Of a DNA stretch of 64,000 nucleotides, positions 15,349 to 26,733 are shown piece by piece (positions within the stretch are counted from its first letter, which is position 1; each line of letters starts with the position of its first letter). The stretch comes from an uncultured Gemmatimonadales bacterium (GTDB lineage: Bacteria > Gemmatimonadota > Gemmatimonadetes > Gemmatimonadales > Gemmatimonadaceae). The stretch covers positions 1,952,001 through 2,016,000 of the forward strand of contig OY969695.1 of assembly GCA_963701965.1 (NCBI GenBank), read 5' to 3'. The notes below the pieces were generated by a model. That model saw only the letters and a program-made list of their open reading frames with translations. It did not search any database and was not told where the DNA came from. A program made the position numbers and the translations under genes.

Positions 15349-18342
15349 ATGCTGCGCATGAGCCCAACAATCGTACGCGCACTTTCCATCGCAGGACTCG
15401 CGATCACGGCATCGCGATCACTCGGCGCGCAGGAGGTCGCGCGCCTCACGGGCCGAGTCGTGGATGCCGCGGACAAGATCCCGATATCGGGCGCCGCCAT
15501 CACCGTCACCGGCACGACCATCGGCGCCCTCGCCACCGACAGTGGCACATTCTCCCTCCGCCTGCCCACCGACGCCAAGACGCTCTCCGTCCGCCGGATC
15601 GGCTATCACCAGGCGACGATCCCCATCACACCCGGCGTCACCGACCTCACGATCGCCCTCGACCGCAATGTGCTCAAGCTGGAACAGCAGGTCATCACGG
15701 GCGTCGCCACAACCGTGTCGTCGAAGAACGCCGCCAACGACGTCGCCGTCGTCACCGCGTCCGCGGTCAACGAAGTTCCGGCCCCGACGATGGAAAACGC
15801 CATTCAAGGCAAGGTGGCCGGCGCCGTCATTCAAGCCAACAACGGCGGCGCCCCGGGCGGCGGCCTGCAGATCCAGGTCCGCGGGATCACCTCGATCAAC
15901 GGCAACGCCTCCCCGCTCTACGTCATCGACGGCGTCATCGTCAACAACGAGACGGTGAACAACGACGCCAACGCCATCAGCCAATCCGGCGGCGGCATAT
16001 CCACAACCGGCCAACCCACCGGCAACGCCCCCAGTCGCCAAGACAACGGCGTCAACCGGATCGCCGACATCAACCCCGAGGACATCGAGACGATCGAGGT
16101 ACTCAAGGGCGCGTCCGCATCCGCCATCTACGGCTCGCAAGCTTCGGCCGGCGTCGTGGTCATCACGACAAAGAAAGGGACACCAGGAAAGCCGAAGTGG
16201 AACCTCGACACCCAGGTCGGACACTTCGCGCTCGCCAACGAGCTCCCCGACCGGACATTCCCGACGTTGGCCAGCGCGCTGGCCTGGGGTCAGGAGTTCG
16301 GCAAGGATCCGACACTGATTCGTCAGGTCTACGCCGGCCCGCAAGACTATCAACGCCAACTCTTCGGCAACAACCAGGCGTCCTACTCGGCCAACCTCAG
16401 TGTGTCCGGGACCGTCGCCGGCGGCACGCAGTTCTACCTCGCCGGGAATTCCAAGTACGACAACGGCGTCGAGAACAACATCGGCTACACCAAGCAATCG
16501 ATCCGCGCCAACGTCACCCAGCCGGTCTCCTCGGCGATCTCGCTCTCGGCGAACCTGAGCTACATGCACGACCTGACCCGCCGCGGCATCACCGGCAACG
16601 ACAACATCGGCTTGAGCCCCTACAACGTCATCGCCAACACCCCACAGTTCGTGGCGCTCGACAAGCAAAATCCCGACGGCACCTGGCCGTCCAACCCGTT
16701 CGCGTCCGCCAACCCCTTCGCCGACGCCGCCGACATCGCCACACCCGAGGAAGTAAGCCGCTTCATCGGCGGCGGCGTATTCGACTGGACCGTGTTCCAG
16801 GCCGAGCACCAGTCCCTCAAGCTCACGATCAACGGCGGCGCCGATCTGACCAGCTTGCACGATCTGCTGTACGCCCCACCCGACCTGCAAGTCGAACTCG
16901 CGATCCCCACCGGGTTGCCCGGCACGTCGGTCTCCAACGTCGCCCAGACTAACTATTTCAACTACGCGATCAACCTCAATCACCACTACACGGGCCTCCA
17001 ATGGCTCGACGCCAACACCACGCTGGGATTCACGCGCGACCGGCGTGAAACCAACAACCCGGTGACCGTCGGCCAGAACCTGCTGCCCGGCGTCAACTCC
17101 CCGACCGTGGGCACGGTGCAGACGAACTTCTTCACCCGCACCGCCCAACTCGATCAGTCCCTGTACGCCCAGGAGCAGCTGCTCACGTTCGACTCGCACC
17201 TGAACCTGACCGCCGGCCTCACGGCCGAGCGCTCCACGAACGACGGGGACATCAAGACATTCTCCTTCTTCCCCCACTACTCGGCGTCCTACCGCACGCC
17301 GGCTTTCAGCGTCGTCAATGAGCTCAAGCTTCGCGTTGCCTACGGCCAGTCTGGCAACCTCGCCCCCTACGGCGCCAAGTACACGCCCTACAACCCCACG
17401 ATCGTCGGCGGCGGCAACGGCGTGTACGTGAACGCCCAACAAGGCGACCCCAACATCAAGCCCGAGTCCGAGACGGAGATCGAGACCGGCATCGACGCGA
17501 CGCTCTTTCATTCCCGCGCCCAGCTCACCGCGACGATCTACCAGAAGCGCCTGACCGACCTCTTGCTCCTGGCCAACGTCGCCCCGACGCTCGGCTACCA
17601 ATTCCAATTCTTCAACGGCGGCGAGCTGACCAACCAGGGACTCGAGCTCTCGCTCAATTCGACACCGATCCAGCTGCGCAACGGCTTCAACTGGCTCAAC
17701 TCGATCACGTTTTACCGGAACTACAGCGTGGTCAATGCACTGCCCACGCCATCAGGGCCGATTGGGTTCACGTTCGGATTCGGAGAGGGATTCTTGGCAC
17801 CCGGCCGATCGGTGTCCGAGGTCGTCGACGAGAGTCGCACCGGCCCCGGTGGCCTGCCGGTGCAAGTCGGCGATTTCCAACCCGGCTACCGGATCAACGT
17901 CGGCAACGAATTCGGTTGGAAAGGATTTCGACTCTACGGCCTGATCGAGTGGAGCCAGGGCGGCAGCACCATCGATCTGACCGACTTGTACTTCGACGGC
18001 GGACCCGGACTGTCGGGCGATCCCACCGCGTCGACCGCGCGCCTCAACTCGTTCCTCGGCGGCAACCCGACCGAATACGTGCAAGACGCGAGCTACTTCA
18101 AGGTCCGGCAAATCTCCCTGAGCTACGTGCTGCCGGCCAACATCGCCCGGTGGGCCCTGGGCGGCCGCATCAACAGCGCGCGCCTGACCCTCTCCGGCTA
18201 CAACATGTTCTCGGTTTTCAAATTCCCCGGCCTCGACCCGGAAGCCAGCGTCAACGGCAATCAGCAGATCACGCGGGGCCAAGACATCGCCCCGTACCCG
18301 CCCGCGAAGAGCTACTTCCTCGGCCTCAACCTGGGGTTCTGA
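15349..18342 (+). CDS. SusC/RagA-family TonB-linked outer-membrane protein (copy 1)
   Basis: Signal peptide, carboxypeptidase-like N-domain, PLYVIDG, DINPEDIETIEVLKGASASAIYG, C-terminal F; GAGGAG Shine-Dalgarno. Confidence 0.93.
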   Translation: MLRMSPTIVRALSIAGLAITASRSLGAQEVARLTGRVVDAADKIPISGAAITVTGTTIGALATDSGTFSLRLPTDAKTLSVRRIGYHQATIPITPGVTDLTIALDRNVLKLEQQVITGVATTVSSKNAANDVAVVTASAVNEVPAPTMENAIQGKVAGAVIQANNGGAPGGGLQIQVRGITSINGNASPLYVIDGVIVNNETVNNDANAISQSGGGISTTGQPTGNAPSRQDNGVNRIADINPEDIETIEVLKGASASAIYGSQASAGVVVITTKKGTPGKPKWNLDTQVGHFALANELPDRTFPTLASALAWGQEFGKDPTLIRQVYAGPQDYQRQLFGNNQASYSANLSVSGTVAGGTQFYLAGNSKYDNGVENNIGYTKQSIRANVTQPVSSAISLSANLSYMHDLTRRGITGNDNIGLSPYNVIANTPQFVALDKQNPDGTWPSNPFASANPFADAADIATPEEVSRFIGGGVFDWTVFQAEHQSLKLTINGGADLTSLHDLLYAPPDLQVELAIPTGLPGTSVSNVAQTNYFNYAINLNHHYTGLQWLDANTTLGFTRDRRETNNPVTVGQNLLPGVNSPTVGTVQTNFFTRTAQLDQSLYAQEQLLTFDSHLNLTAGLTAERSTNDGDIKTFSFFPHYSASYRTPAFSVVNELKLRVAYGQSGNLAPYGAKYTPYNPTIVGGGNGVYVNAQQGDPNIKPESETEIETGIDATLFHSRAQLTATIYQKRLTDLLLLANVAPTLGYQFQFFNGGELTNQGLELSLNSTPIQLRNGFNWLNSITFYRNYSVVNALPTPSGPIGFTFGFGEGFLAPGRSVSEVVDESRTGPGGLPVQVGDFQPGYRINVGNEFGWKGFRLYGLIEWSQGGSTIDLTDLYFDGGPGLSGDPTASTARLNSFLGGNPTEYVQDASYFKVRQISLSYVLPANIARWALGGRINSARLTLSGYNMFSVFKFPGLDPEASVNGNQQITRGQDIAPYPPAKSYFLGLNLGF

Positions 18343-18343
18343 C

Positions 18344-19816
18344 ATGCAACCGTCTCACACCATCGTCATAGCCGCGCTGGTACTCGCGGCGTGCTCCGAC
18401 ACCAACGTGCCTTTCTACACGGCGCCGACCGTACTGCCCAACACTCCGGCCGGCGTGACGACGGCGCTGACGGGATTGGTCAGCGCGTCGCGCCTGGACC
18501 TGGGCGGCGCCCAGGGGTTGTTCATGTTCGACATGGCGGGCTACGCGCGCCAAGCCGCGAACTATACCAATACCGAGCCGCGTTTCATTACCTACATTCT
18601 GGGCCTGGCGCCGATTCCGCCGCAGGGCTGGCCGGCCGTATGGGCGCTCTCCTACGGCGAGATCCTCCAGTCGCACCAGATCATCGCCATGATCCCCAAC
18701 GCCAATCCAACCTTCACGCCGCAGCAGGCCGCGGCATTGACGGGCATCACGCAAACGCTGGAGGCCTACGACTACATCGTCGTGGCCGAGGACCACGATA
18801 CCTTGGGCGCGGCCGTGTTGCCGCAGAACCCCGGCACGACTCCTCCGCCGGCATACTGTATCAAGGACGTCTGGAAGTACATCGTGGCGCTCCTCGATTC
18901 GGCCAACGCCAATCTCAACATGGCCGGCGCCACGTCCCTCAAGTTCGCCCAGCTCCCGCCGGGGTTCGCCGCCGTCAGCGCCGTCGCCGGACCGAGCACC
19001 GTCGCCGGCTCGTTCGCGTCATTCAATCGCGCGCTGGCCGGACGCGCCGGACTGGAACTGGCCTACGCGATCGCCCGCAGCAGTCCCGCGACCACACCGT
19101 CGGAAACATCGCCGGGACAACCCGACATCGCGGCCCTGACCGCGGCCGACAGCGCCATGAGCCATTCGGCGTTGTTCGATCCGGCGGCGCTCGCCCCCAA
19201 TCCGACGGACGGCTGGAACGCCGACGCGCATTCCGTGTTCTTCGATTTCAGCGCGCAGTCGGGAGATCAGACGAACCCGATGAACGGCGTCATCGGCACG
19301 ATGGTCGTTCTCAAGAACGTGCCCGACGCGCAGGACACGATCAACGATCTGCGCTGGAAAGCGAAGTTCATCGTCAATCCGAATCAGGTCCAGCAACAGG
19401 CGTTCGACTCGGTCGTGTCACCGTACATCTATGACATGTATCCGAGCCCCGCGTCGTTCCTGCCCATCGTGCGCGACGAAGGCCTCACGCTGACGGAAGC
19501 GCAGATTCAGCTCGGGCTCGGCAACTTCGGCGCGGCCGCGACGCTCGTCAACAATGTCCGGACGCAGGTGGGCGGATTGGCGCCGGCCACGATTCCCAAC
19601 ACCTACGTCGGCACCCGCGACGCCCTGCTGCACGAACAGCAGATCTCCTCGTTCCTGGAGGCACTCGGCGACCGCACCGTCGCCATCCGGATGTACAAGC
19701 TGGAGAAAGCGCTGCTCACCACGTGGGGAGTCCAGGACCTGCACACCACGATCGATCCCATCCCCGGCACGGAGCTGGCCGGGCGGGGCGGGACATTCAC
19801 GAAAACCTGTCCCTAA
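18344..19816 (+). CDS. SusD/RagB-family lipoprotein (copy 1)
   Basis: Lipobox LAAC, directly after SusC; PIVRDEGL.L.EAQ motif. Confidence 0.85.
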   Translation: MQPSHTIVIAALVLAACSDTNVPFYTAPTVLPNTPAGVTTALTGLVSASRLDLGGAQGLFMFDMAGYARQAANYTNTEPRFITYILGLAPIPPQGWPAVWALSYGEILQSHQIIAMIPNANPTFTPQQAAALTGITQTLEAYDYIVVAEDHDTLGAAVLPQNPGTTPPPAYCIKDVWKYIVALLDSANANLNMAGATSLKFAQLPPGFAAVSAVAGPSTVAGSFASFNRALAGRAGLELAYAIARSSPATTPSETSPGQPDIAALTAADSAMSHSALFDPAALAPNPTDGWNADAHSVFFDFSAQSGDQTNPMNGVIGTMVVLKNVPDAQDTINDLRWKAKFIVNPNQVQQQAFDSVVSPYIYDMYPSPASFLPIVRDEGLTLTEAQIQLGLGNFGAAATLVNNVRTQVGGLAPATIPNTYVGTRDALLHEQQISSFLEALGDRTVAIRMYKLEKALLTTWGVQDLHTTIDPIPGTELAGRGGTFTKTCP

Positions 19817-19817
19817 G

Positions 19818-20246
19818 TCAGGCGGGACGCAGGCGGCCGTCGACCCCCGCGCATCGCGCGCGGACGGCGGCCGTCAAGTCCTCGATGTCGAACGGCTTGA
19901 GCAGCACGGGACATCCGGTCGCCTCCAGCGTCGCGTAGGTGGCGATCGCAATGTCCCCCGTGATGAAAATCGTGCGCTCCCTGAGCCCGGGCTGCACGCT
20001 CTGCGCGTACTCGAACAAGAGATCGCCGCGTACGTCGGGGATGCGATAGTCGAGAATCAGGCAGTCGAAGCAATGGTCTCCCAGCAGCCGCTCCGCCGTC
20101 TCCCCACCCGGCGCGACGTCCACGACATACCCATCGCGCGTCAGCAACACGGCGAACGCCTGGCGGATCGACGGCTCGTCGTCCACCAAGAGAATGCGCA
20201 GGCCGCTGCCGCGGCGCCCGCCCGCCCTATCCCTGTCCGGCGGCAT
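19818..20246 (-). CDS. Stand-alone response-regulator receiver domain
   Basis: ILLVDDE, phospho-acceptor in CLILD, FITG, LLKPF. Confidence 0.88.
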   Translation of the reverse strand: MPPDRDRAGGRRGSGLRILLVDDEPSIRQAFAVLLTRDGYVVDVAPGGETAERLLGDHCFDCLILDYRIPDVRGDLLFEYAQSVQPGLRERTIFITGDIAIATYATLEATGCPVLLKPFDIEDLTAAVRARCAGVDGRLRPA

Positions 20247-21168
20247 GGCGCAACAGGGTGAGCACCGGCAGCGCCGCCGGCGCGCGCCGGCCCACCACCA
20301 GTGTCGAGAGACACTCCGACACGCACTGGTCCGGCGTCACGACGCGACGCCACGCCGCGAAGCGGCGCCCGCTCATCAGGCGCACATGCGCCGCGAACAC
20401 ACGGGCGTCCCCGTAGCCGAGGCGCTGCGCGACATCCGCCATCGAGAGCGCCGGATTCTGCGCGTATTGATACGCGCGCAGGACGCGCGCCGCGACGACC
20501 ATGACGCGGGCCGGCGCCAAGCCCAGCCGCTCCAACCACCGGTTCACGCCGCGCCGCGGCATCTCGGCCGCCAAGGCGACGTCGCCGGCGCTCTGAAAGC
20601 GCATCGGTCGCCGGAACAGCTCCTCGACCGCCCCCGCCAAAGCCGCCGGCGCCTCACCCGCCATGAACACCACCCGCAGCGCGCACACGATCCGCTCCTC
20701 GAGCCCCGACGCGCGCAGCGTTTCCAACCGTTCCCGGAATCGCGTCGGCTCGTCGTCGAACCCCCGCAGGATGCAATGCCGCACGCCGCACTCGCCGAGC
20801 GACAACATCGCTCTGGTGGATTCGGCGGTGATGGACGTGTACACCAGCATGGAGACCAATGGAAAGCCGGCGCGGATCGCCCGGACGGCCTCGATGTCCG
20901 CGGGGCCGTCCACGCACGGATCCACGACCGTGATCTCCACCGGTCGCGCGCGGAGCACGCCGGCCAGCGCCGGCCAGCTCGTCGCCGCGAGCACGGTGTG
21001 TACATCACCGGCCACGGCGCGCAGGTGGGACAACATCAATGGCGACAAACGGGCGACCAGCTGGAGCGCCGGCGCCCGATTCCGCCGTCGAATGACCCGA
21101 TCGGCGATTGGCAGGCACGGCTCGGTAACCGAACGTTCTGCGAGGCGGCAATGGTCCGCCGTCTCCAT
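20227..21168 (-). CDS. AraC-like HTH regulator with a degenerate receiver-like N-domain (start uncertain, between 21168 and 21036)
   Basis: C-terminal double HTH (SAGDVALAAEMPRRGVNRWL...SMADVAQRLGYGDARVFAAHVR); N-terminal VVDP and LVYT receiver-like segments; its end overlaps the receiver gene start. Confidence 0.75.
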   Translation of the reverse strand: METADHCRLAERSVTEPCLPIADRVIRRRNRAPALQLVARLSPLMLSHLRAVAGDVHTVLAATSWPALAGVLRARPVEITVVDPCVDGPADIEAVRAIRAGFPLVSMLVYTSITAESTRAMLSLGECGVRHCILRGFDDEPTRFRERLETLRASGLEERIVCALRVVFMAGEAPAALAGAVEELFRRPMRFQSAGDVALAAEMPRRGVNRWLERLGLAPARVMVVAARVLRAYQYAQNPALSMADVAQRLGYGDARVFAAHVRLMSGRRFAAWRRVVTPDQCVSECLSTLVVGRRAPAALPVLTLLRHAAGQG

Positions 21169-21183
21169 GCCTTCGAGGTAACC

Positions 21184-21402
21184 ATGCTCGTTCGCCCCGC
21201 CCGCGGCGCCGCTCTCGTACTCGGCGCTACGATACTCGCCCTCGCGACTGCCTGCGCCAGCCCCATGGCGCCCCACGCCGCCAACAGCGGTATCGGCGCT
21301 GGCTCCAGCGGCCAATCGACGTCGGTCAGCTCCGGCATCGGCGCCGGCTCCAGCGGTCAGTCGGCGGCCCACTCCGGTATCGGCGCCGGCTCCAGCGGCT
21401 GA
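21184..21402 (+). CDS. 72-aa exported peptide with three SGIGAGSSG repeats (candidate signalling propeptide)
   Basis: GAGGT Shine-Dalgarno at 21175-21179, ATG 21184, hydrophobic signal ending ATAC, three repeats differing only synonymously, TGA directly after the last repeat. Confidence 0.8.
   Translation: MLVRPARGAALVLGATILALATACASPMAPHAANSGIGAGSSGQSTSVSSGIGAGSSGQSAAHSGIGAGSSG
21286..21399 (+). repeat. Three 27-bp coding repeats (21286-21312, 21331-21357, 21373-21399)
   Basis: All three encode SGIGAGSSG; the spacers encode QSTSVS and QSAAH. Confidence 0.95.
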
Positions 21403-21422
21403 GCGCCCCTGCGGCGGCGCGG

Positions 21423-22745
21423 TCATCCGCTGACCGCGGCCATCAATCGGGCCCCGTGAATCGCCTCCGCTACCCGGCTCACGCCAGACGGCCGGGACGC
21501 CGCGGATATCGCGGGTAGCGCGGCGCGCGGCGCCAGATCGAGGCCGGAACGGAGCGCCGCGCGCGCCGCACCGGCGCGCTGTGCCAGTTCGGCCAGCCCG
21601 TGCCGTTCGGCGATGGCGACCGCCCGGTCGAATGCCGCCGCCGCGCGCACGGGCTGCCCGAACGTAATGTGGCCCTGCGCGACGTAGTACTCGAACTCGC
21701 CCGCCACCACCGGCGGCAGCGCCGCACCCGCCAGGGCTTTCCAATGGCGCCGGAAATCCAGCTCCGATCCCTCGATCGTCGCGATCTCAATGAGGTTGAC
21801 CGTCGCCACCCACCGCGTGTACGGCTCGTGCGCCGTGTCGGCGAGCAAGGCGTTCGCGTCGCGCGCGACATCGGGAAACCCGGCCAGCTGCAGCAACGAG
21901 GCCAACGTCACCAGCACGCGCTCGCGCTCCACCGCGTCGGCCGTGGAGACGAGCGCCTCGTAGCCATAGCCGATGCCCTGCTCATAGTCGCCGCGCTGCA
22001 GGGCCACGTTGGCCAGATCGTGCCAGGCGAACGCGCGCACTTCGCTGCAATCGGCGGCCGACGCGGCGGTCACGATCTCCAACAACTGCTCGTGCGCCTG
22101 CGGCAGATCGCCGAGACCCGCGCAGAGCTTGGCCTCGCCCAGTCGCGCCCGCAGCACGCCGCGCTGGTCGTTCCGCGACGCGGCCAACGACCCGGCCGCG
22201 TGAAACGCCTGCGCCGCCCTCGGCGCGTCGCCCAGCGTCCGATAGCAAATGCCCAGGTAGAGGGCCGCCGACGTCGCGACGTCGTCGTCGACCGGACCGA
22301 TGACCAGGTCGTCCACGTAGGCTTCCCACACCAGCGCGTAGACGTCGGCCGCCAATCCCCACGCCGAACGAACATGCAGCGCGCGGGCATATGCGAATAG
22401 CGGCGGGATGATGCGCGGGGATTCGCCCTCGCGTAGCGCGACGACACGCGCCACGATATTGCTCAGGAGACGCCGTTCGGCGCCCTCCAATGGCCACTCG
22501 GCGATCGCGTGGTGCACGGCATGGACTTCGTACTGGAACGCCCGCTCCTGCGCCCGCGCGTTGGCGAGCGACTCCGCGCCCCAGCGAACGGGTCGGGGAT
22601 GCCACGAGTCGAGTAGGCGAAGCGTGACGAGTCCCGCGCGCGCCGCTCTCCATCCATCGCTGGCCTCATCAGTAGACGCCAGCGCGTCGAAGAACGCGCT
22701 ATGCCGCAGGGACGTCTCAGTCTGAATCACTGGAACGACGGCCAT
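21423..22745 (-). CDS. Cytoplasmic all-helical TPR-like repeat protein
   Basis: TPR-like segments ALYLGICYRTLGDAPRAAQAF, AWHDLANVALQRGDYEQGIGY, YYVAQGHITFGQPVRAAAAFDRA; no signal peptide. Confidence 0.72.
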   Translation of the reverse strand: MAVVPVIQTETSLRHSAFFDALASTDEASDGWRAARAGLVTLRLLDSWHPRPVRWGAESLANARAQERAFQYEVHAVHHAIAEWPLEGAERRLLSNIVARVVALREGESPRIIPPLFAYARALHVRSAWGLAADVYALVWEAYVDDLVIGPVDDDVATSAALYLGICYRTLGDAPRAAQAFHAAGSLAASRNDQRGVLRARLGEAKLCAGLGDLPQAHEQLLEIVTAASAADCSEVRAFAWHDLANVALQRGDYEQGIGYGYEALVSTADAVERERVLVTLASLLQLAGFPDVARDANALLADTAHEPYTRWVATVNLIEIATIEGSELDFRRHWKALAGAALPPVVAGEFEYYVAQGHITFGQPVRAAAAFDRAVAIAERHGLAELAQRAGAARAALRSGLDLAPRAALPAISAASRPSGVSRVAEAIHGARLMAAVSG

Positions 22746-22938: not shown

Positions 22939-25326
22939 ATGCAATCCCTCGCCCAAGACCTCAAGCTCGCCATGCGCCGGATTGGGCGCTATCCGGCGAT
23001 TTCGTTTGCTATTATCGCGACACTAACGCTTAGTATTGGCGCCAGCGTCGCGACATTTAGTATCGTTAGCGGCGTTCTGCTCCACCCGCTCCCGTATCCC
23101 GAACCTGACCGTCTGCTCGTGCTCGCCCCGGATGGCGTATCGATACCGGACGGCGTCGACTGGCGGGAGCGGAGCCACACGCTGCGCGATGCCGCGCTCT
23201 TTCTCCCCACCTGGGATTTCGACCTGACCGGACGTGGCGCGCCCGAACGCCTGGATGGCGCTGTCATCGAGCCACGCCTGTTCCGCGTGCTCGGCGTGCA
23301 CGCCGAGTTGGGTCGGGATCTCAGCGACGCCGATGATCGCGCGGGCGGACCACACGTCGCCGTCATCGCCCGCGGCCTCTGGGTCCGCCGGTTCGGCGCC
23401 GACCCGCAAGCGATCGGGCGGACCATCACGTTGAATGGCGCGGCCACCACCATTGTCGGCGTCATGCCCGCCGAAGCGGACGTCTTCGGCACCGGAGTGC
23501 AGGTGTGGGTGCCGCAGGCCATCGAAACGCCGTGGGCCGCCACCAGTCGCGGGAGCAACAACTTCGCCGCCATCGGCCGCCTCGCGCCCGCGACCACCCT
23601 CGAGGCCGGACGCGCTGAATTGCTGACGATCAGCCGCGCATTGGCCGCCAAGTACCCGGACACGAACGAGGGCAAGCTCCTCGCGCCGGTACCGATCCTC
23701 GACGCCCTCGTCGGCCAGGTCCGGGCACCGCTCGTGCTCCTCCTCGCGGCCGTCTCGCTTGCGCTGCTCCTCGCCGCCGCGAATCTCGCGGGCCTGCTCC
23801 TCGCCCGCGCCGAGTCGCGCCGCGACGAGATCGCCGTCCGCCTCGCCTTGGGCGGCGGACGCCGGCGCATCGTGCGGCAACTCGTCACCGAAGGCGCCGT
23901 GCTCGTCGGCGTCGGCGCCGCCCTCGGCACCCTGCTCGCGGCCATGGGACGCGACCTCCTCGTCGCACTGGCCCCGGCGTCGCTGCCTCGCGCCGCGGAG
24001 ATCGGTATCGACTGGAGAGTCCTCGCCTTCGCCGTCATTGCGGCCGCGGTCACCGGCGCCCTGTGCTCGGCCCTGCCGGCGCTGGTGACGGTGCCATCCA
24101 GTCGCGCCCGCCGCGCCGCGCCGCGCTCCCGGACGTTCTTGCGCGGCCTCGTGGTGGGCGAGCTGACGGCGGGCCTCGTCCTCGTCAGCGGCGCCGCACT
24201 CCTGGCGCGCAGTCTCTTCGCCCTGGAACGCGTGAACCTCGGGTTTGATCCGGCGCGCGTCGTCACCGCCGACCTGGTTCTTCCCGAAGCGCGCTATGGA
24301 GTCCGCGAGCGGCAAACGGCGGCGTTCCTGGCCGCGGTGCGGGCGCTAGCCGTGGCGCCGGGAGTCGAGGCCGCGGGATCGGGGATGGGCATTCCGCTCT
24401 CCGGGAACATGCACGTCGGATACCGGTTCGCCATCAATGGACGGCCTCCGCTCCCCGCGGGTCAGGACGGCGCCGCCGATCGCCCGGTGACCGGTGAATA
24501 CTTCCGGGCAATGGGGCTGCCCCTCCTGTCCGGCCGCACCTTCACGGAATCCGACCGCGCGGGAACGGCACCCGTTGCCGTCGTCAACCAAACATTCGCG
24601 CGCCAGTACTGGCCCGGCGCGTCCGCGCTCGGCGCGCACGTCCACTGGGTCGGGATCGACGGTGGCGGCGCGTGGATGACGGTGGTCGGGGTCGTCGGCG
24701 ATGCGGCGGGCGCGGCGCCCACGACGCGCGATGCGCCAGCGATCTACGTTCCCTACGCCCAACGCACCGAGCAGTGGCAGCGATTTGGCACACTCGTCGT
24801 GCGGCTCCGCGCCGGCCTCGATCCTGCCGCCGGCGCCGCGCTCCTGCGGGATACCTGGGCCCGCGTGGACCCGGACGTGCCGCTCGCCCATGTGGGGCCG
24901 ATGACGCGCCGGCGCGCCGACAGCATCGCCCAGCCGCGGTTCAATGCGCTGGCGCTGGGCGTGTTCGCGCTCGGCGCGCTCATCCTCGCCGTGCAGGGCG
25001 TATACGGGACCGTCAGCTATGTCGTCGAGCAACGGCGGCGCGAGTTCGGCGTGCGCGTCGCCATCGGCGCCACGGCGCTCAATGTCGTGCGCATCGTCAT
25101 GCGCGACGCGGCCGCAATGGCGCTCGGCGGCATCGCCCTCGGCACCATTGGCGCATTGGCGGCGACCCGGGCCTTGGGGAGCCTGTTGTATGGCGTTGGC
25201 GCCAGCGATCCCGCGACGCACGCGGCCGCAGCCGCGGCCCTGGCCGCCGCCGCGCTCGTCGGCGCCTATGTCCCCGCGCGCCGCGCGGGCCGCGCCGACG
25301 CCGCCCAGTCCCTGCGCGGCGAGTAA
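22939..25326 (+). CDS. ADOP-type duplicated ABC permease (MacB/FtsX-like)
   Basis: MQSLAQDLKLAMR start, HPLPYPEPDRL, two FtsX-like halves (EIAVRLALGG, EFGVRVAIGA), ending PARRA...LRGE. Confidence 0.9.
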   Translation: MQSLAQDLKLAMRRIGRYPAISFAIIATLTLSIGASVATFSIVSGVLLHPLPYPEPDRLLVLAPDGVSIPDGVDWRERSHTLRDAALFLPTWDFDLTGRGAPERLDGAVIEPRLFRVLGVHAELGRDLSDADDRAGGPHVAVIARGLWVRRFGADPQAIGRTITLNGAATTIVGVMPAEADVFGTGVQVWVPQAIETPWAATSRGSNNFAAIGRLAPATTLEAGRAELLTISRALAAKYPDTNEGKLLAPVPILDALVGQVRAPLVLLLAAVSLALLLAAANLAGLLLARAESRRDEIAVRLALGGGRRRIVRQLVTEGAVLVGVGAALGTLLAAMGRDLLVALAPASLPRAAEIGIDWRVLAFAVIAAAVTGALCSALPALVTVPSSRARRAAPRSRTFLRGLVVGELTAGLVLVSGAALLARSLFALERVNLGFDPARVVTADLVLPEARYGVRERQTAAFLAAVRALAVAPGVEAAGSGMGIPLSGNMHVGYRFAINGRPPLPAGQDGAADRPVTGEYFRAMGLPLLSGRTFTESDRAGTAPVAVVNQTFARQYWPGASALGAHVHWVGIDGGGAWMTVVGVVGDAAGAAPTTRDAPAIYVPYAQRTEQWQRFGTLVVRLRAGLDPAAGAALLRDTWARVDPDVPLAHVGPMTRRRADSIAQPRFNALALGVFALGALILAVQGVYGTVSYVVEQRRREFGVRVAIGATALNVVRIVMRDAAAMALGGIALGTIGALAATRALGSLLYGVGASDPATHAAAAAALAAAALVGAYVPARRAGRADAAQSLRGE

Positions 25327-26733
25327 GCCGGCCCGTATACTCCACGCACGTCCAGAGCCGTCCTCACTACCATCGCCGCGACCGCGGCGGCGCGGCTCGC
25401 GCTGGCGGCCGCTTTTGGGCTGGGCGTCGATGAGTCCTACGCCGCATCGGTGGCCCGGCCACCATCGCTCAGCTACTTCGAGCACCCACCGCTCCATTTC
25501 TGGATCGCGGCGGGCGCCGAGGCGGTGGCGCGGGTCCACGGCGCGAGTCCCATGGCGGATCTGGCGGTGCGCGCGCCCTTCATCGCACTGTTCGCGCTGA
25601 CCACGTGGCTCATGTACCGCCTGACGGCACGTCTGTTCAATGAACCGGCCGGCGTCGCCGCGGCACTGGCGCTCAACGTCTCCGCCGTGTTCACCGTCAG
25701 CACCGGCGGGTGGGTCCTGCCGGATGGGCCCCTCATGTGCGCGGCGCTCGCCGCCGTCTACTGCGTCGTGCGCGCGGTCGACAATGACGCGCCGGCATGG
25801 TGGCTCGGAGCCGGGCTCGCGTGTGGTGTCGCTTTGCTCTCCAAGTACCACGGCGTGCTCGTTATCGCCGGGGTGTTTCTCTTTCTCGTGAGCACGCCGG
25901 GCGCGCGTCGATGGCTGGCGCGTCCCGCTCCCTATCTCGCCGTGCTCATCGCCGCTTTGGTGTTTTCGCCGGTGCTCATCTGGAATGCGCGGCATGGGTG
26001 GATTTCGTTCGTCTTTCAGCTCGGGCGCAACGCGCCGCCCCATGGGCGGCCGTTGCTCGCGCTGTTGCAGAACATTGGGGGGCAGATTGGCTTTGTGTTG
26101 CCGTGGGTGTGGATTCCACTGATCATGGCCTTCGTCTCGGCGCTTCGCGCCGGACGAAAAGACGCACGAGGGTGGTTGTGCTGCAGCCTGGCGATCATAC
26201 CCATCACGTTGTTCACCTTGGCGTCGCTGGGCGGGAATCCGGGGCAGCCGCATTGGCCGGCGCTCGGCTATCTCTTTCTCTTCCCTCTGCTCGGGCGCGG
26301 CGCGACGGCCTGGCCGTTTCGGCGCTGGCTCGCCGCGTCGTTCGCGGTGCTCGGCGCGGCCGCGCTCATCGTGTGTTGGCGCCCGCCGGCCGATCTCGTG
26401 GATTGGAAGGACATTCAGCAGCTCGATACGCGCGGCCGTTTCGTCGCGGCGCCGAGTTGGATCCAAGCGGGCAAGGTCGCGTGGGCGCTCGGTCCGGACG
26501 TGCCGGTGCTCTGTCTCAGCGTCGAGCCCCACCAATTCGCCTTTCTCCGGGACCCGCGCGATTTCGTCGGGAAAGACGGACTCCTCATCATGCGCCCCCA
26601 AGGCGCGAAGGCCACCCTGGCCCGGTACGCGTCCTTGTTCGCGGCGATCACCCCTCTCGGTGAACGGCCGATCACGCGCCTCGGCCGCACCCAGTTCACG
26701 GTGGCGGTCTTCTCAGCGACCCAAATGAAATAA
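25327..26733 (+). CDS. GT-C fold glycosyltransferase (family 39 / ArnT-like); start codon unresolved
   Basis: GVDESY, SYFEHPP, PDGPL, LLSKY and SPVLIWNA motifs; the open frame extends upstream of GTG 25450 to the preceding stop. Confidence 0.8.
   Translation, partial: AGPYTPRTSRAVLTTIAATAAARLALAAAFGLGVDESYAASVARPPSLSYFEHPPLHFWIAAGAEAVARVHGASPMADLAVRAPFIALFALTTWLMYRLTARLFNEPAGVAAALALNVSAVFTVSTGGWVLPDGPLMCAALAAVYCVVRAVDNDAPAWWLGAGLACGVALLSKYHGVLVIAGVFLFLVSTPGARRWLARPAPYLAVLIAALVFSPVLIWNARHGWISFVFQLGRNAPPHGRPLLALLQNIGGQIGFVLPWVWIPLIMAFVSALRAGRKDARGWLCCSLAIIPITLFTLASLGGNPGQPHWPALGYLFLFPLLGRGATAWPFRRWLAASFAVLGAAALIVCWRPPADLVDWKDIQQLDTRGRFVAAPSWIQAGKVAWALGPDVPVLCLSVEPHQFAFLRDPRDFVGKDGLLIMRPQGAKATLARYASLFAAITPLGERPITRLGRTQFTVAVFSATQMK

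Follow-up and report, generated by a model that had tools for sequence, protein, structure and literature searches.

Tandem octapeptide cores in a predicted lipoprotein precursor encoded beside a TPR protein gene: a candidate peptide ligand and receptor in Gemmatimonadota

Intracellular TPR receptors for exported peptides have been described for Bacillota. According to the available text of PMC11343458, the propeptides of the Rap-Phr systems are exported by the Sec route and yield pheromones of 5–10 aa, the pheromone can be present as several identical or nearly identical copies, every one of them functional, the Rap targets are response regulators or repressors, and a groove Asn of Rap (N226) anchors the peptide backbone. 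Propeptides of the RRNPPA group carry up to six identical copies (PMC9765709, in the accessible part), and Rap of pLS20 takes a repressor off DNA (PMC7641744, likewise). In the portion of PMC10075063 that is available, RRNPP is framed as a Firmicutes system, and the signals of Gram-negative bacteria as typically enzyme-made small molecules.

The locus described here lies in the window (the whole stretch of 64,000 nucleotides that was analysed) from an uncultured Gemmatimonadales bacterium, genome G000, and is a cassette of a propeptide gene, a convergent TPR gene, a divergent gene for an atypical receiver-AraC regulator and a gene for a lone receiver. As far as the accessible accounts of Rap-Phr go, in particular those of Rap105-Phr105, Rap3T-Phr3T and the action of Rap pLS20 on Rco, the likeness is manifold: Rap, like the window TPR protein, is a cytoplasmic TPR protein of ~400 aa without an HTH; the receptor gene adjoins a gene for a small precursor that is exported and has at its C-terminus a short, sometimes duplicated core; many paralogous pairs occur in one genome together with orphans, as in the TPR family; the receptor likely acts on a separate DNA-binding protein; and the folds match with Z scores of 20–21. 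The selected C-terminal unit here spans 7–8 residues, with duplications, compared with the 5–10 aa of the mature Rap-Phr signal.

There are also differences. Gemmatimonadota have two membranes, and the window host belongs to this phylum, whereas Rap-Phr resides in Bacillota and their mobile elements. No sequence similarity was found between Rap-Phr and the window TPR protein. The peptide and TPR genes of the window are convergent, unlike rap-phr, where the phr gene usually follows rap on the same strand; moreover, the cassette carries its own atypical receiver-AraC gene and a lone receiver, and the cores are mostly Cys-bracketed and Gly-rich, all unlike Rap-Phr. A lipobox is present in every Gemmatimonadota precursor found, in contrast to 7.7% with SPII signals in RRNPPA (accessible part of PMC9765709). 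The cassette is not counted in the RRNPP/RRNPPA group, since no sequence homology was found in the searches made and the host range is not that of Bacillota.

Other peptide receptors share particular features. The TPR peptide-binding fold is likewise found in NprR-NprX, PlcR-PapR and AimR-AimP (NprR, Z 17.8), and the NprR, PlcR and AimR subfamilies, too, include multi-copy propeptides (PMC9765709, same part). However, these receptors carry an HTH, whereas none is detected in the window TPR protein, which likely delegates DNA binding to the AraC protein. The enterococcal sex pheromones, such as cCF10, whose receptor is PrgX, are cut from the signal peptides of lipoproteins. They resemble the proposed window system in that a lipoprotein-derived peptide signal is paired with a TPR-like receptor, but the cCF10 signal lies inside the signal peptide, whereas the amplified selected unit of the window precursor lies at the C-terminus of the mature part. 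Literature naming Gemmatimonadota (main texts of mainly open papers) yielded no account of such a system.

The propeptide gene and its cassette

The 72-codon ORF of the propeptide (Table 1) has no internal stop on translation and makes up the 3' end of a 402-aa ORF (20194-21402), the sole entry for it in the ORF listing, as the preliminary description had noted. An RBS-like 4-mer precedes 115 of the 124 family peptides versus 302 of 3000 random ATGs, a difference that is partly circular given that the choice of start favoured an RBS. The cores lie in 27-nt units that include the leading Ser codon (21286-21312, 21331-21357 and 21373-21399) and differ by three third-position changes and one AGC/TCC exchange, all silent; re-reading recovered these sequences, and the dissimilar spacers QSTSVS and QSAAH, exactly as first reported. 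Only frame +1 gives identical peptides three times, the copies diverging in each of the other five frames. Within the 8-codon core, 3 of 3 single changes are silent (P 0.025–0.033), and with a P of only ~0.03 the window gene by itself is modest evidence for selection.

Table 1. Positions of the features of the cassette in the window
Feature	Position	Strand	Remarks
Propeptide gene, 72 aa	21184..21402	+	Predicted small lipoprotein with three core repeats; homologues found
GAGGT, RBS-like	21175..21179	+	GAGG at 21175-21178, 5' of ATG
Signal peptide residues 1–23 and lipobox Cys24	21184..21255	+	Cys24 at 21253-21255; sequence motif, family alignment
Core copy 1, GIGAGSSG	21289..21312	+	Repeat comparison
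Core copy 2, GIGAGSSG	21334..21357	+	Repeat comparison
Core copy 3, GIGAGSSG	21376..21399	+	C-terminal; repeat comparison
TPR protein, 440 aa	21423..22745	-	All-helical, predicted receptor; convergent with peptide gene; no export signal, no detectable HTH
Degenerate direct repeat (TGTCnCAAAA twice, 21-bp spacing)	21070..21101	+	Candidate AraC operator; 3.9 bits
Atypical receiver + AraC-type HTH regulator	20227..21066	-	Divergent from peptide gene; start uncertain, open upstream to ATG at 21168
Single-domain receiver, CheY-like	19818..20246	-	Downstream of AraC gene

The signal of the window propeptide ends in A-T-A followed by Cys24, with Ala rather than Leu at position -3, which bears out the lipobox-like end described earlier. 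Ala-Cys occurs in 121 of 121 aligned peptides and a K/R with a hydrophobic run in 124 of 124 family peptides, both counts being partly built into the detection rule. From the basic n-region, the hydrophobic h-region, the lipobox Cys and the Lgt and LspA of the host (G000 encodes both, as well as family-5 solute-binding proteins, SBP_bac_5), the window propeptide is predicted to be, and likely is, a lipid-anchored precursor. A Tat route is conceivable for the family, with RR in 88 of the 124 peptides and an RRxFL-like motif in eight; the window propeptide has no RR. The mature part of the family precursors comprises ~17–67 residues and is rich in Gly, Ser and Pro.

Homologues were hard to reach with the peptide itself. 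The propeptide query matched 5 of 61 genomes, G000 included, and two of these matches were spurious on inspection; NCBIfam and Pfam gave no family above cut-off, only weak matches to lipoprotein signals. Because this query finds almost nothing, relatives were sought through the TPR protein. Thus, the search of related genomes for signal peptides with repeated Gly/Ser-rich cores, as originally suggested, came back nearly blank in its peptide form and succeeded through the TPR gene. Scans of positions 21000–21500 for sigma-70 promoters and terminators found none.

Among 147 distinct TPR ORFs, 141 have at least 400 nt of downstream sequence, and of these loci 121 have a convergent lipobox peptide, 115 an AraC gene, 109 both and 14 neither. 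The sample consists of search matches together with 80 regions picked from match lists, that is, of best hits, so that 121/141 overstates the rate for the family as a whole. Applied to 400 other long ORFs of G000 as controls, the peptide rule scored six, a family member among them. TPR and peptide occur without AraC at 12 loci, and TPR with AraC but without peptide at six, at one of which the peptide had been missed by the rule and was found otherwise. The lone receiver lies 3' of the AraC gene in 55 of the 67 loci with room for it. Of 7996 candidates scored with a peptide profile, 378 called proteins matched; the 120 matches listed are unnamed or bear generic lipoprotein names. These 378 homologous called proteins and the fixed place in the cassette support the propeptide ORF as a real gene. 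Amino acid identities of the TPR and AraC proteins are correlated (Spearman 0.74), with a shared nearest neighbour in 53 of 91 cases, a tracking that indicates co-inheritance rather than contact.

The genome of the window holds 17 ORFs of the TPR family. Eight of them are accompanied by a convergent small ORF that encodes a signal, a lipobox and a Gly-rich C-terminal core, each core being different and six of the eight peptides Cys-bracketed; no adjoining peptide was found for the other nine. TPR matches are present in all six genomes of the genus (7–21 matches each), in 76 of 151 genomes of the family and in 116 of 301 of the phylum, mostly in two families, the latter two tallies taking in one unpublished genome, G012, on which nothing else reported here depends. 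The gene order is fixed across at least two families. The closest TPR records bear Gemmatimonadaceae or Gemmatimonadales in their titles; the Atlas clusters ranked highest for the TPR protein are from Gemmatimonadota, with names no more specific than TPR or hypothetical. In viral contigs, nine pattern matches were obtained and none was confirmed with a single TPR query; plasmids gave no TPR match.

The surroundings of the cassette are more variable. Within ~2 kb upstream of the TPR gene, the commonest gene is shared by 31 of 118 loci and the remainder vary; no conserved modifying enzyme was found in this interval in the 118 loci, and the downstream partners are the AraC and receiver genes. In the window, a TonB-dependent receptor (Plug domain) followed by a lipoprotein, which we take to be SusD-like, occupies 15349-19816 (+) and reaches to within 2 bp of the lone receiver gene; this pair was not seen in the loci of seven relatives compared, some with short flanks. 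A MacB/FtsX ABC permease and a PMT_2 glycosyltransferase (22939-26733, +) are divergent from the TPR gene, and the two are kept together in three relatives of the genus and the glycosyltransferase in five.

Core repeats in orthologues and relatives

The orthologue set was defined as the 14 loci, the window counted in, whose TPR protein is at least 53% identical to that of the window; the duplicates L179, L180 and L183 and the contig-cut L008, whose remnant carries the same two cores as L009, were left out. The ten distinct complete peptides that result, selected on TPR identity and not on repeat quality, all have two to four cores. Besides GIGAGSSG three times in the window, these are GVGAGSSG three times with GVGAGSSN; GVMPGSGG, GVTTGGGT, GVIIGST, GVVIGTGG and GVGLGGST twice each; GVTVGGGT twice (two loci); and GTTVGSSG with GTTIGSSG. 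Differences between copies in the ten orthologues amount to 37 silent and 2 replacement changes, and with the distant amplifications L144 and L169 (12 repeat-bearing precursors) to 46 and 2, where ~30% silent is expected; a binomial P on 46:2 overstates the case, since related sequences do not count as independent and the patterns of the cores were defined by eye. As judged by this comparison of sequences, the core peptide is shown to be under selection. Moreover, cores are alike within a gene and unlike between species, a comparative pattern that shows the copies within a gene to change in concert.

The preliminary description had proposed selection on a nonapeptide and had counted the AGC/TCC serine swap as part of the evidence. 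Selection on the repeat stands, but the residue ahead of the core varies between copies in 7 of the 10 orthologous peptides, so that the selected unit is the octapeptide GIGAGSSG, with the leading Ser as flank; the nine-residue boundary was accordingly rejected, and the swap, being located in the flank, drops out as evidence. Linker-like drift of the repeat in homologues, which had been named as the observation that would overturn the idea, was looked for, and the ratio of 37 silent to 2 replacement changes speaks against it.

The receptor closest to the window TPR protein, at 69% identity and its sister on the tree, is that of L176, and its core, GVGAGSSG, is also the closest. Of the four cores of L176, the last stands between two Cys, which links the linear repeat form to a disulfide-loop form. 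Across the family, a Cys pair brackets the core in 82 of 124 peptides, and single-copy relatives keep a G-x-x-x-G-S/G-x motif at the C-terminus. Separate core amplifications were observed in L144 and L169, with six copies of SGYNGSGT and three of HTIGSGN. On the TPR tree, which is unrooted and does not tell gain from loss, the repeat trait changes three times. Comparison of the orthologues revealed no consistent protease site flanking the cores.

The TPR protein, covariation with the core and the AraC regulator

The TPR protein is likely a receptor. Its model is all-helical (pLDDT 90); Pfam TPR matches are below cut-off in the window protein, and TPR_12 is matched in 14 of 21 members. Only 2 of 130 TPR representatives have a hydrophobic N-terminus, and the family is therefore likely cytoplasmic. 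Structural matches were led by LGN (Z 23.9) and Pins (23.8), with MalT domain III at 19.1 and NprR at 17.8, and the best bacterial ones were Rap pLS20 (20.9), Rap phi105 (20.5), RapH (20.2) and RapI (20.0); Foldseek also placed LGN first and the Rap entries lower. Since LGN and Pins outscore Rap, the match is to the TPR superhelix in general. LGN, to go by the titles of its structure entries, binds extended peptides in its groove, but LGN/Pins is a eukaryotic polarity adaptor and MalT a STAND ATPase sensor, neither with a linked peptide gene. Rap proteins bear a three-helix bundle at the N-terminus where other RRNPP members have an HTH; in the model of the window protein, N-terminal helices span residues 30–47, 60–83 and 89–105, and RapH aligns with the full model from residue 31, with an rmsd of 5.9 over 311. 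No homology to Rap, NprR, PlcR, Rgg, PrgX or AimR was detected among 28 PDB sequences at E values up to 10, none to RRNPP proteins in the best 60 of 118 profile matches and none by NCBIfam for 21 members of the TPR family.

Some members of the family depart from this architecture. In a single protein, P0043 (644 aa), the TPR part follows an ECF-type sigma factor (Sigma70_r2, r4_2); this arrangement is in line with TPR proteins acting on transcription factors and could be a read-through of two genes. Forms of ~500 aa (P0006, P0014, P0029, P0042, P0044, P0048, P0068 and P0104, and one at about 4337130 of G000:C1) have an N-terminal module, C-x-G-x3-H-x-W-x-D-x2-D-A-x2-CC-N-G-Y, for which no Pfam match was found and which is a possible metal-binding sensor.

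Covariation between the TPR protein and the core centres on position 243. Positions 243, 280 and 317 occupy the same place in three successive TPR A-helices, and 243 corresponds in the alignment to Asn6 of the TPR consensus, a groove-facing residue. In the family, D243 is present in 72, D280 in 104 and N317 in 82 of 121 proteins; the window protein has D243, T280 and N317. Among the ten orthologues, five combine D243 with Ser at core position 6, and five combine E243 with Gly or Thr. Over 15 independent pairs on the tree, the association of D243 with core Ser6 scores 7.0 versus 0.4 (nominal median p 0.031), and 6.0 versus 0.5 when the ten orthologues that suggested the rule are removed; position 243 ranks first of 324 TPR positions for core Ser6, as position 280 does for core Gly5. 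Of five pairs put through the tree-aware test, this is one at nominal p<0.05, and four are not: R237 with core position 4 and N317 with core position 2, the top pairs by mutual information, lost their signal and were rejected, as was D/E243 with core position 5, and D280 with core position 5 gave a median p of 0.125. As TPR identity increases, core identity goes up only from 0.21 to about 0.65, and signal-peptide identity climbs at least as fast, so that kinship accounts for the rise. The covariation at position 243 is suggestive of contact between the TPR groove and the core.

The N-terminal part of the AraC protein models as a receiver (pLDDT 91; Z 16.9; rmsd 1.9 over 113 residues). Canonical receivers have a phospho-Asp, an acidic pair after beta1 and a Lys after beta5. 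Here, the beta3 Asp is present in 106 of 109 relatives, and the consensus has neither the acidic pair nor the Lys, from which it appears that the protein is likely not switched by ordinary phosphorylation. In 67 of 120 loci, a TGTCnCAAAA direct repeat with 21 bp spacing precedes the peptide start by 110–119 nt, with a motif likelihood of 1141 versus 70–85 for shuffles, and its median score is 26.5 bits at loci with AraC (n=109) versus 5.7 at those without (n=12). Tandem direct repeats are the usual form of AraC operators. The AraC protein is thus suggested, by its co-occurrence with this motif, to be a regulator of the peptide gene, of its own gene or of both. The window repeat lies at -114, the same distance as 14-bit sites in two orthologues; with 3.9 bits, a score equalled or beaten at 2633 sites of the genome, this degenerate copy is credible by its position only.

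A genome scan with the direct-repeat matrix yielded no clear regulon, the best site in G000 (27 bits, contig position 1669773) being away from any TPR gene. Elsewhere in this genome, the AraC partner of another TPR-peptide pair (G000:C1:1706051-1706834) is in two pieces in different frames, from a frameshift or an assembly error. A closely related AraC paralogue (G000:C1:2329767-2330591) has neither TPR nor peptide beside it; it lies downstream of the gene found most often ahead of the TPR gene in family relatives and may be a remnant of an ancestral position of the cassette. At L021:3707-4072 (G000:C1:4339654-4340019), an orphan TPR-AraC pair without peptide is followed by a PqqD-family gene, whose neighbour is presumably a lasso-peptide B2 protease, and the region is possibly a regulated RiPP cluster.

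Proposed mechanism, rival readings and significance

The gene, its repeats and the cassette around them are established by direct observation. That the TPR protein and the core form a receptor-ligand pair is, in our judgment, very probable, and we consider it probable, with considerable room for doubt, that the pair serves signalling between cells in the manner of Rap-Phr, from a lipoprotein precursor. The precursor would be exported by Sec, lipidated by Lgt and cleaved by LspA at Cys24, as the lipobox and the presence of both enzymes in the genome suggest; a protease would then cut GIGAGSSG from it in the periplasm or outside the cell. The octapeptide would be taken up by a peptide ABC transporter, family-5 binding proteins being present in the genome, and bound in the TPR groove along D243/T280/N317, as fold and covariation suggest. 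By analogy, the free TPR protein might hold the AraC regulator inactive until the peptide frees it, the sign of this effect being a guess, and the freed regulator might then attach to the direct repeat that precedes the peptide gene, resulting in positive feedback. Extra core copies would raise the dose per precursor, and the copies in one gene would change together as receptor specificity drifts. A point against this reading is that a lipid-anchored peptide would leave a cell with two membranes less easily than a peptide leaves Bacillus.

Signalling between cells shares its ligand and receptor with a rather unlikely, if still serious, alternative, in which the TPR protein is a monitor within the cell that detects unexported or unlipidated precursor, or core freed in the cell's own periplasm, and reports the status of export, lipoprotein maturation or envelope proteases to the AraC protein. 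The lipobox in all aligned peptides would tether the precursor to the membrane of its producer, and only 211 of 2734 predicted secreted propeptides of Bacillota RRNPPA have SPII signals (accessible part of PMC9765709); the evidence from linkage and covariation fits equally well. However, species- and paralogue-specific cores (eight different ones in G000) are expected of kin-specific signals and less so of a housekeeping monitor, and the Cys pairs around 82 of 124 cores suggest, against detection of unexported precursor, that the active form has passed through the periplasm. It is also conceivable, albeit improbable, that the small lipoprotein is the output of the system, a membrane-anchored tag or adhesin-like peptide, on the surface or in the periplasm, induced by AraC, whose repeats add avidity for an external partner while the TPR protein senses something else. 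The direct repeat upstream of the peptide gene does accompany the AraC gene, six TPR-AraC loci are classed as orphans without peptide (one of them with a missed peptide), and the cores have no consistent flanking protease site; but 12 loci retain TPR and peptide without AraC, covariation between TPR groove and core points to contact, and the mature part is only about 17–67 residues long and Gly/Ser/Pro-rich.

Multi-core precursors are also the logic of cyanobactins and microviridins, and the cores, repeated behind a leader, might be modified enzymatically into a secreted metabolite, the more so as ABC permease and glycosyltransferase genes lie upstream of the TPR gene in the window genus. We hold such a RiPP precursor to be very improbable, because modifying enzymes are not consistently associated with the cassette, the genes conserved alongside the precursor encode regulators, and the leader is a lipobox-bearing export signal. 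The remaining explanation, a non-functional GC-rich slippage repeat or an ordinary Gly/Ser linker in a shadow ORF, is largely refuted and scarcely to be believed: the sequence is of low complexity, the within-gene P is only about 0.03 and stop-free frames are not unusual at 67% GC, but against this stand the 37 silent versus 2 replacement changes in orthologues chosen by TPR identity, copies conserved in frame +1 only, and 378 homologous proteins with a gene order fixed across at least two families.

The contribution of this locus is the orthologue series, which provides an eight-residue ligand boundary, the concerted change of the copies and the rule at position 243. In the repeat-bearing clade, the repeats mark the boundaries of the ligand and no disulfide is needed, which makes a test cheap; the ten orthologous receptor-core pairs constitute a specificity matrix in which D243 or E243 predicts Ser or Gly/Thr at core position 6. 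The series bears on an open question of Rap-Phr, namely whether duplicated pheromones serve divergence or dose: here, the copies are the same within a gene and change between species. On a wider scale, the Gemmatimonadota might possess a phylum-wide, independently evolved form of peptide communication. Octapeptides, either looped by a disulfide or linear and repeated in tandem, would be released from lipid-anchored precursors and read by a TPR anti-activator, which in turn would control a receiver-AraC regulator independent of phosphorylation; each genome would have about 20 receptor paralogues with private ligands, and the amplified copies would evolve in concert with the receptor. We put forward this composite picture tentatively and with more reserve than the signalling role itself. 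If such a system works in a two-membrane soil phylum, it would broaden the picture of intracellular TPR receptors for exported peptides and raise the question of how a lipid-anchored peptide crosses the envelope.
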